Positions 47,304 through 49,522 are shown, numbered from the stretch's first letter. The stretch is 64,000 nucleotides of DNA from Waddliaceae bacterium (GCA_963724325.1 CAVRUH010000005.1:160001-224000); one strand, 5' to 3'. Made by a program: numbers and translations. Notes: generated by a model not told the origin, from the letters alone.

Positions 47304-47846
47304 TTATAAAAAGTCATCTTCAATGGTTACTTTGTCTATATTGAACGACAAAACGGTATTTTGGAATTGTTTATCTGCATTTTCGTAAAATGATGTAGCT
47401 GAACACCATAGATAATCTCGTGCATCGGTAACAAGTTTGTGTTTCACGGGATTATTGATAACGTATTTGATTCTTGCATAGTATGAATTGGTGAAAGTTA
47501 AGCTTGTATCCCAATATTGGCGCCAGACCTTACGGCCGTTAACTTGATCGATATTATTTAGTATAACAGCGCTCTTTCCGTGAATACCTTTCATTAATTT
47601 TGGTAAATTTTCAGGATTGACAATGTTACTAATAATTAGGTGATAATGGTTGATGAGTATTGCCCAAGCTTGAAGTTTCCAGCCATATTTTTGGGTTTGT
47701 TCAAAAATAATTGATTGTAGGAGTGTCAATTTTTCAGGAGTATTGAATAAGTGTTTATTATCTAAAGTAGCTGCCGTAATCGAATAAGCACCTTTAATAT
47801 CGTACTTGTGAGGTGGTTCATGACTATGATTTGATTGAAGCATCAT
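47304..47846 (-). mobile_element. REP-associated tyrosine transposase (RAYT/TnpA-REP, Y1 HUH family)
   Basis: YSITAAT, AWAILINHYHL (HUH), VWRQYWD, YVINNPVKH and YLWCS motifs; adjacent to a palindromic REP array. Confidence 0.88.
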
Positions 47847-47906
47847 GCATAAATTCTAATGCAACAAAACATTTTCGAGAAGCGTTTTTTTACAGAAATA
47901 GTCCAA

Positions 47907-49522
47907 TTTGGAGTGACCCAATTCATTGGGTCTTTTTCCAAACCCAATTCATTGGGTTTGGTGGATGGCAAAATCTTACAATTCGCTAAGGCGAACAAAT
48001 TCGGAATTCGTTTATGGAGTGACCCAATTCATTGGGTCTTTTTCCAAACCCAATTCATTGGGTTTGGTGGATGGCAAAATCTTACAATTCGCTAAGGCGA
48101 ACAAATTCGGAATTCGTTTATGGAGTGACCCAATTCATTGGGTCTTTTTCCAAACCCAATTCATTGGGTTTGGTGGATGGCAAAATCTTACAATTCGCTA
48201 AGGCGAACAAATTCGGAATTCGTTTATGGAGTGACCCAATTCATTGGGTCTTTTTCCAAACCCAATTCATTGGGTTTGGTGGATGGCAAAATCTGCAATT
48301 CGCTAAGGCGAACAAATTCGGAATTCGTTTATGGAGTGACCCAATTCATTGGGTCTTTTTCCAAACCCAATTCATTGGGTTTGGTGGATGGCAAAATCTG
48401 CAATTCACAGAGCCGAATAAATTCGTCTCTGAAAAAGACCCAATGAATTGGGTCACTCCAAAATAAACTATTTCCTTATAGGTTCATTGGGTTTGGTGGA
48501 TGGCAAAATCTACAATTCACAGAGCCGAATAAATTCGTCTCTGAAAAAGACCCAATGAATTGGGTCACGCCAAAATAAACTATTTCCTTATAGTTTCATT
48601 GGGTTTGGTGGATGGCAAAATCTGCAATTCACAGAGCCGAATAAATTCGTCTCTGAAAAAGACCCAATGAATTGGGTCACTCCAAAATAAACTATTTCCT
48701 TATAGTTTCATTGGGTTTGGTGGATGGCAAAATCTGCAATTCACAGAGCCGAATAAATTCGTCTCTGAAAAAGACCCAATGAATTGGGTCACTCCAAAAT
48801 AAACTATTTCCTTATAGTTTCATTGGGTTTGGTGGATGGCAAAATCTGCAATTCACAGAGCCGAATAAATTCGTCTCTGAAAAAGACCCAATGAATTGGG
48901 TCACTCCAAAATAAACTATTTCCTTATAGTTTCATTGGGTTTGGTGGATGGCAAAATCTGCAATTCACAGAGCCGAATAAATTCGTCTCTGAAAAAGACC
49001 CAATGAATTGGGTCACTCCAAAATAAACTATTTCCTTATAGGTTCATTGGGTTTGGTGGATGGCAAAATCTGCAATTCACAGAGCCGAATAAATTCGTCT
49101 CTGAAAAAGACCCAATGAATTGGGTCACTCCAAAATAAACTATTTCCTTATAGTTTCATTGGGTTTGGTGGATGGCAAAATCTGCAATTCACAGAGCCGA
49201 ATAAATTCGTCTCTGAAAAAGACCCAATGAATTGGGTCACTCCAAAATAAACTATTTCCTTATAGATTCATTGGGTTTGGTGGATGGCAAAATCTGCAAT
49301 TCACAGAGCCGAATAAATTCGTCTCTGAAAAAGACCCAATGAATTGGATCACTCCAAAATAAACTATTTCCTTATAGTTTCATTGGGTTTGGTGGATGGC
49401 AAAATCTGCAATTCACAGAGCCGAATAAATTCGTCTCTGAAAAAGACCCAATGAATTGGATCGCTCCATAAATGAATTCCGAATTTGTTCGGCTTAGGAA
49501 ATTGTAAAATTTTGCCATCCAC
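47907..49522. repeat. Two-phase tandem REP array: 106-bp units then 112-bp units, closed by an inverted A-type unit
   Basis: A units start at 47909, 48015, 48121, 48227, 48332; B units start at 48407, 48519 ... 49415; core palindrome GACCCAAT-TC-ATTGGGTC preceded by GGAGT. Confidence 0.95.

Follow-up and report, generated by a model that had tools for sequence, protein, structure and literature searches.

A RAYT-type transposase gene of a Waddliaceae bacterium adjoins an intact TGGAGT-tagged REPIN with a run of truncated REPINs leading outward on either side

In the genome of a Waddliaceae bacterium (GCA_963724325.1), we found that a RAYT-type transposase gene lies beside an array in which truncated REPINs run outward on both sides of a single intact one. 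As far as sequence can tell, the locus is a real REPtron that would work like the systems of Escherichia coli and Pseudomonas, with an enzyme of the RAYT class and repeats that are not of the GTAG kind. The repeats carry a TGGAGT tag that is shared by a large, barely described branch of RAYTs, one of which, from Chloroflexus, is in print (PMC6006769, Table S1). Taken alone, the array elaborates on a process that is already known.

The window, by which we mean the whole stretch of 64,000 nucleotides that was analyzed (G000:C5:160001-224000), comes from a 2.37-Mb assembly of 11 contigs that is 84.6% complete; positions given with a contig name lie elsewhere in the same genome. A fused double UvrA and a PknD kinase are chlamydial traits, and both are present: the fused double uvrA gene (49538-55153, minus strand) has the same strand as the RAYT gene and lies upstream of both that gene and the array, and PknD scores above its cut-off. 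Together with relatives from Parachlamydiaceae, these two genes point to a chlamydia-related host. The RAYT (TnpA-REP) gene at 47304-47846 (minus strand) is a real open reading frame that encodes 180 amino acids, with an HUH motif at H67-Y68-H69 and the catalytic Tyr128 in YVINNP; ORFs within the array are repeat translations and were left out of the gene count. We rejected a conserved uvrA-RAYT synteny, as a genome of the same genus (G001) carries different DNA after uvrA. On the other side of the RAYT gene, two tandem paralogues of 930 and 932 amino acids with ankyrin repeats occupy 41671-47297, and the stop codon of the second is 6 bp from the RAYT stop codon. Their N-terminus presumably resembles an F-box, with no Pfam match to F-box, and they are possible host-directed effectors. 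At 40549-41348, a nucleotidyltransferase gene is followed by a substrate-binding-like gene (PF18765, PF08780), a pair that we take to resemble an MNT-HEPN toxin-antitoxin pair. A second nested palindrome family, unrelated to the REPs, is present at 59719-60156; its 20-mer has 132 genome matches with at most two mismatches, and no TGGAGT tag was seen in it.

The initial annotation had placed a Y1 HUH transposase about 60 bp from four full and one partial A units of 105-106 bp, followed by nine full and one partial B units of 112 bp with the REP in the opposite orientation, and an exact parse bears this description out. The first REP begins at 47910, at a distance of 63 nt upstream from the RAYT start codon, and Tandem Repeats Finder (TRF) reports a period of 106 in 4.9 copies (47909-48425) and a period of 112 in 9.8 copies (48371-49473), both with 98% matches. 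Four A units (47910-48332, plus strand) of 106, 106, 106 and 105 bp lead into the intact central REPIN (48333-48459), in which two inverted REPs, each followed by an inner hairpin, surround a spacer and which folds as one hairpin at –53.5 kcal/mol. Nine B units of 112 bp (48384-49391, minus strand), the first of which is the right half of the central REPIN, are followed by a terminal part-unit (49392-49467, minus strand) that ends in a REP (49445-49467) with two substitutions, one of them common to the neighboring B unit. Along the array, five REPs in plus orientation are followed by ten in minus orientation. An A unit consists of a tagged REP hairpin (H1), five T, an inner hairpin (H2a), the spacer, a truncated distal hairpin and an 11-nt 5' flank, while a B unit, read on the minus strand, consists of a 23-nt 5' flank (K), a tagged REP, five T, an inner hairpin (H2b), the spacer and half of H2a. 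On the strand of its own REP, a unit thus opens with a 5' flank, of 11 nt in A and of 23 nt in B, and continues through the tagged REP, the five T, an inner hairpin and the spacer to a distal inner hairpin that is broken off; it amounts to a REPIN without one terminal REP. The array had been described as self-inverted and two-phase, and the REPs are indeed opposed; however, the central spacer has the same direction in all 14 units, and B is not simply A turned around.

At its edges, the array differs from a plain pair of tandem runs. The right outer flank (49468-49522, minus strand) is an inverted, diverged copy of the A-unit tail with 5 differences in 55 positions. An inverted, diverged A unit had been proposed for the end of the array at 49439-49522; these coordinates hold, as do all others of the initial annotation, and an A tail and a REP are present, but the A-type inner hairpin is absent. 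The left outer 5' flank (L) of the first REP (47888-47909, plus strand) has its best match in the B-unit linker K, at 15 of 22 positions, and the next best among 38 other flanks reaches 12 of 22. The flanks of the array are therefore swapped, in that the A tail equals the right outer end (50/55) and the B linker is closest to the left outer flank, although the match of K to L is modest as support for this. The units within each run are nearly identical, in agreement with the earlier statement that this is not a spacer-bearing array, and the unique spacers of a CRISPR-like array are absent: the nine B units differ at 6 positions in all and three A units are identical. Half of these 6 differences, three, are at the junction base, a lead that was noted after the fact and from few cases. 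The units at the edges are mosaics of those next to them (the fourth A unit carries the B-type spacer variant, and the ninth B unit shares a change with the terminal REP), and the outer copies are diverged while the inner units are nearly identical. One-sided runs of the same unit type adjoin other RAYTs of the family (L060, L066 and L140), and a seven-unit run is present at C7:65106.

To place the transposase, we compared profile scores, motifs, predicted fold and trees. The protein matches Pfam Y1_Tnp at 29.9 bits (cut-off 23) and the NCBIfam model NF047646 (REP_Tyr_transpos) at 79.3 bits, 0.7 bit below the cut-off of 80, which 8 clade members from 6 related genomes exceed; the IS200 model NF033573 gives 19.4 bits against a cut-off of 55. 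It carries YxxxNP (Y128-V-I-N-N-P) without the IS200-type YxxxQ, Y128 aligns to Y115 of the E. coli enzyme, and HYH and YxxxNP are invariant or nearly so across 32 homologues. The only PDB sequence match is 4ER8 (E. coli TnpA-REP), which is also the top match of the predicted structure (pLDDT 88.9), with a TM score of 0.63 as compared to 0.46-0.50 for IS200/IS608 enzymes. A single-protein search of genome contigs gave 2 loci only; the family was recovered by profile searches, in which 905 of 2353 candidate proteins fall in the clade at E ≤ 1e-30. In a careful tree of 25 rows drawn from an 88-row quick tree, with no group 3, 4 or 5 references included, 14 clade members, L140 among them, group at 97/98, and the clade is sister to a single E. 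coli RayT row at 92/84 with a long-branch warning. Six rows labeled IS200-type by their YxxxQ form a separate clade (100/100) without the window protein, but a tree that forces the window protein to the IS200 side is not rejected by the AU test (p = 0.116), so that the tree alone does not settle RAYT versus IS200; motif, scores and fold settle it for RAYT. Judged from sequence and modeled fold, the assignment as RAYT-type rather than IS200 in the initial annotation is thus supported. As regards monophyly of the chlamydial members, the quick tree has open forks, and six metagenome rows fall inside the chlamydial group.

The window RAYT is the sole PF01797/Y1 transposase match in this 84.6% complete assembly. 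Its nearest RAYT relative (68%) is in a genome of another family, G394 (L020), where two inverted REP arms enclose the gene in the manner of an autonomous element and a matching hairpin overlaps its 3' end; G394 also shares with the window REP an unusual GAC..GTC stem and a two-hairpin arm. The window gene is flanked by its cognate REP on the 5' side only: a search for a degenerate REP on the 3' side (46801-47320) found none at ≤7 mismatches, while most relatives do have a 3' REP.

A genome-wide count of the motif had been suggested, and the REP 23-mer has 152 matches (≤4 mismatches) in 41 clusters, compared to 0 and 0 in two shuffled genomes. The repeat is a REPIN family in which the doublet is the commonest arrangement: 19 of the 41 clusters are exact inverted doublets, 10 are singlets and the remainder are arrays of up to 27, mostly of doublet repeats. 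The clusters lie largely between genes; 37 are outside long ORFs and 4 overlap an ORF of at least 150 amino acids, while such ORFs cover 83% of the genome, and 19/41 clusters are between convergent ORFs as compared to 145/695 of gaps overall. One dispersed REPIN of the same family lies in the window itself at 27036-27191, between convergent ORFs; the gene of an 1800-aa RHS/YD-repeat protein (21042-26444) ends about 590 bp before it. Each arm consists of the tag, hairpin H1, five T and a second hairpin. The public contigs that were compared show no pair of empty and filled sites for the doublet. A REP variant with a compensating stem change has 39 copies, which probably stem from one event. In all 39 distinct 5' flanks, GGAG is preceded by T-W-T, with a preference for TC at –8/–7, and TC-N-RR-TWT is conserved at –8 to –1 upstream of the tag in this genome. 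We rejected a fixed cut site at this motif, which by eye is not general in the flanks of relatives, and unit starts vary from about –8 to –23 from the tag. Two single loci stand apart: at C1:77269, a lone tagged hairpin with an AAGCC..GGCTT-type stem resembles the REPs of the RAYT at L045 and is possibly a relic of an earlier RAYT, and at C1:702287 three head-to-tail copies of the 12-nt 5' tail of a REP stand immediately ahead of the tag.

The initial annotation had taken a GTAG/GGAG tag as established for RAYTs. The canonical guide is GT[AG]G (PMC6006769), but GGAG is absent from the main texts of PMC6006769 and PMC3733652, and no discussion of such a tag was found in the former. Here, the conserved tag is (T/A)TGGAGT, and the foot of the hairpin is TGGAGT, not GT[AG]G, in the window and across the clade. 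We found TGGAGT within 300 bp of 23/30 chlamydial family genes and 74/81 other family genes, as compared to 7/20 and 8/33 distant control windows, respectively, that were 1.0-1.3 kb away; we quote these k-mer counts because a looser count of tag plus hairpin (24/30 and 76/81) includes some chance matches. In 88 distinct 18-mers, selected for nothing but the tag with a TTT after it, pairing at the inner stem positions 4-8 reaches 88, 83, 92, 64 and 81%, as compared to shuffled means of 42, 28, 53, 27 and 57%. Among 399 other scored genomes of the phylum sample, 25 have the RAYT clade; the tag motif is present in two or more copies in 24 of these 25 (up to 344 copies) and in 11 of the 374 clade-negative genomes (at least one copy in 17/374), a figure that stands for association only, as these genomes are kin and many are incomplete. 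Two genomes with a family RAYT are without the motif (that of L018 has no match, and G266 has none of the TTT-ended motif). Six chlamydial genomes in which the clade RAYT was not found (G188, G241, G289, G311, G353 and G381) have 11-38 motif copies, and such genomes hold either orphaned populations or RAYT genes that were not assembled; the same-genus genome G001, where the clade RAYT was not found, has 11 related REPs.

Residues W94, Q95, E100/D, H101 and R104 are named as guide contacts of the E. coli enzyme in PMC6006769. In the window RAYT, W94 is kept (W108), while Q95, E100, H101 and R104 correspond to R109, D113, T114 and T117, the last of which is nearly invariant among homologues; the replacement of Q95, H101 and R104 would fit a different guide.

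Many REPs are associated with other mobile elements. We found that 90 of the 152 REPs, in 16 of the 41 clusters, ride inside a MITE composite whose ends we take to be IS66-type (C1:196737-197041, C1:419658-419928, C11:25204-25437 and 13 more), and the commonest REPIN variant travels in this way. Three composite sites have 8-bp target duplications, and arrays of the composite, including the largest in the genome, have 13-bp direct repeats at their ends; a search of the 84.6% complete assembly found no IS66 transposase. A group II intron (Rfam RF02005) that encodes a 441-aa reverse transcriptase interrupts the tag of the inverted REP, just 3' of the hairpin, and does so at an identical base at L174 (C7:341296) and C7:331761, with a similar junction at C1:876316; it presumably belongs to class C, with the REP serving as the stem-loop that it targets. 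Insertions of an IS that carries a 455-aa DDE_5 transposase lie immediately 3' of hairpins at L173 (C1:772305) and at 8 more left ends, 3 of the 9 after the inner hairpin of a REPIN and 6 after a different palindrome family, and one copy splits a 27+7 REP array. A serine-recombinase identity for the element after hairpin 2 was rejected, as this element encodes the DDE_5 transposase.

How the array arose can be reconstructed in part from its junctions. Local amplification of each arm of one REPIN had been proposed, and the runs do lie on either side of an intact REPIN; however, each unit takes in one arm, the spacer and a portion of the other arm, and the two runs have exchanged their flanks, which calls for an extra inversion or template switch. 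The account that we lean toward, and hold to be on balance probable, is that the enzyme nicks single-stranded TGGAGT-tagged hairpins and in this way seeded both runs, and that the swapped flanks record one later inversion. Following the model in PMC3333891, cutting of a strand on both sides of a bound REP and rejoining of its ends would give the junction type seen in the units. Cut-and-join on each strand of one REPIN would have made one head-to-tail duplication per side; the interior would then have been inverted once between the two outermost REPs, a 29-bp inverted repeat, which would set the A run beside the flank belonging to B and vice versa; and slippage or unequal crossing-over may later have expanded each run and homogenized it to at least 98% identity. 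When one inversion is undone, both runs become plain outward tandem duplications, similar to the one-sided runs at L060, L066 and L140 and to the run at C7:65106. The expansion looks later and stepwise because the outer copies are diverged, the inner ones near-identical and the edge units mosaic, and the mosaic edges fit stepwise host recombination better than one rolling-circle burst. Amplification driven by the RAYT is plausible, while the spread and tandem expansion of REPs need no RAYT, since 90/152 REPs are in the MITE and the largest arrays are bounded by its direct repeats. We regard it as somewhat unlikely, but as a serious contender, that the gene is a RAYT and the repeats are its REPs but the enzyme is a mere neighbor of the array, which the host alone would have made by slippage, unequal crossing-over and a RecA-type inversion at a long hairpin. 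The stability of the central fold and the mosaic edges are what such a history would leave; before the proposed inversion the A run would have been flanked by direct spacer copies, a ready substrate for unequal crossing-over; and the arrays at C1:769456, C7:385081 and C7:331170 are bounded by the 13-bp direct repeats. In contrast, the B junction has no flanking direct repeat, every unit here and at other loci of the family retains a single tagged REP preceded by a short flank, and half of the few B-unit differences are on the junction base. Decidedly less probable is that fold-back copying, once per strand, swapped the flanks instead of an inversion: a 3' end past an inverted REP would prime on the opposite arm, copy its 5' flank and return upstream on the template. 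The final sequence would be identical, the route matches the iREP-primed model of PMC3333891, and linker units at L060 also resemble the flank of the opposite arm, but this likeness is explained by a flank common to both arms, and four template switches would be needed as compared to one inversion.

Two further accounts question the array or the enzyme itself, and we give both very little credence. The array could be an assembly artefact of one REPIN, as its units are near-identical and strongly self-complementary and no contig or long read examined spans it. To address this, we compared public short-read contigs from six of eight available runs, none of them RNA, over two sub-stretches of the locus. 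Contigs of run X1, which may share the source sample, are identical to the RAYT gene where they match it and include the A-to-A junction, the 105-bp variant and a B-to-B joint that steps back by 112 bases; a contig of run X6 covers one B unit, and the central stretch is without cover in contigs of run X2. Both head-to-tail junction types are thus present in public short-read contigs, while the copy number rests on the assembly, as none spans the array. The private substitutions of units, the 105-bp variant and comparable arrays at other sites of the genome and beside relatives also argue against an artefact. The gene could instead be an ordinary IS200/IS605 TnpA and the hairpins amplified IS ends, a reading with which the Y1_Tnp match, the IS-like layout in G394 and the AU result go along. 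It is largely refuted by YxxxNP in place of YxxxQ, the single gene copy, the low IS200 score, the separate IS200-type clade and the dispersal of the repeats without the gene; in addition, plasmid matches included no family member (5 records, all <31% identity).

The array may also affect transcription. Fifteen REP hairpins and one other are terminator-like, as compared to 2.2 expected, and ten of the REP ones are on the uvrA-to-RAYT strand; these ten, lying between the two genes, are predicted to damp read-through from uvrA. A promoter scan gave 4 sites as compared to 7.3 expected, and thus no signal. Groups 2 and 3 are the only RAYTs that go with REPINs according to PMC5581495 and bioRxiv 10.1101/2021.07.10.451892. 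On a bolder reading, which we consider improbable, the clade of 905 proteins would constitute a third class of RAYTs that form REPINs, with TGGAGT as a guide code of its own, and would be active in obligate intracellular chlamydiae; the array would be a frozen record of strand-specific cut-and-join on both strands and of site-specific inversion at the tag, and also a self-tuning terminator stack that throttles DNA-damage-linked uvrA read-through into the transposase.

These data bear on two open questions, how RAYTs choose their cut sites and how REP arrays amplify. The clade supplies many natural enzyme-REP pairs with a very constant non-GTAG tag and co-varying stems, which makes the guide-pairing idea directly testable, and the junctions of the array give precise predictions for an in vitro assay. 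They also extend REPIN-RAYT systems to Chlamydiota. The initial annotation knew of no characterized system in this phylum; in agreement, no description of RAYT/REP systems in Chlamydiota was found in the literature searched, outside of which most subscription journals fall, and no chlamydial name is present in two supplements of PMC6006769.

Several known systems resemble the locus. In TIRtrons (TIRYT), RAYT-like genes are flanked by inverted repeats of a non-GTAG type, some of them double palindromes, which make up dispersed families (PMC3733652), as in the window; they differ in sharing the motif GGGGWSAS. GGAGTG was not found in four text supplements of that paper, whose Figures 8 and 9 and one further supplement may list related repeats. 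The E. coli TnpA-REP (4ER8) is, like the window protein, a single-copy Y1 enzyme with HUH and YxxxNP, the same fold and its own REPs flanking the gene, and E. coli REPs likewise form inverted doublets, as well as tandem arrays whose units are uniform at any one locus (PMC3333891, PMC8266576); arrays beside RAYT genes and models of their amplification are also given in PMC3333891. In contrast, the two proteins are about 21-23% identical, the tag is GTAG there (as in all three enzyme-REP pairs studied in PMC8266576) and TGGAGT here, the arms in the window carry two hairpins each, and its arrays consist of same-strand truncated units in two opposed runs.

In the REPIN-RAYT system of Pseudomonas fluorescens, the REP doublet is also the common unit, tandem arrays of REPINs and of same-strand REPs occur, including clusters beside RAYT genes (PMC3116915), and few REPs are left in a sister genome in which no RAYT was found, as in G001 here. 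The window differs in its chlamydia-related host, in a patchy distribution (25/399) with no conserved position by uvrA and in the spread of many REPs as cargo of the IS66-type MITE; opposed runs with swapped flanks are absent from the P. fluorescens descriptions in the available portions of PMC3116915, PMC5581495 and bioRxiv 10.1101/2021.07.10.451892. Similar in its tag is the REPtron of Chloroflexus aurantiacus, for which Table S1 of PMC6006769 has four GGAGTG/GGCGTG rows for one protein, ABY36092.1, filed under subclass 2.2. At L140, a RAYT of the family that matches the profile at E = 2e-79 and falls in the 97/98 clade has each of the four REP variants beside it, in tandem arrays, and when 301 genomes of the phylum of G405 were searched with the Chloroflexus REP, 3 of the 4 that matched hold a clade RAYT. 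As compared to this REPtron, the window REP has a GAC..GTC stem and a second hairpin, not the usual GCG..CGC stem.
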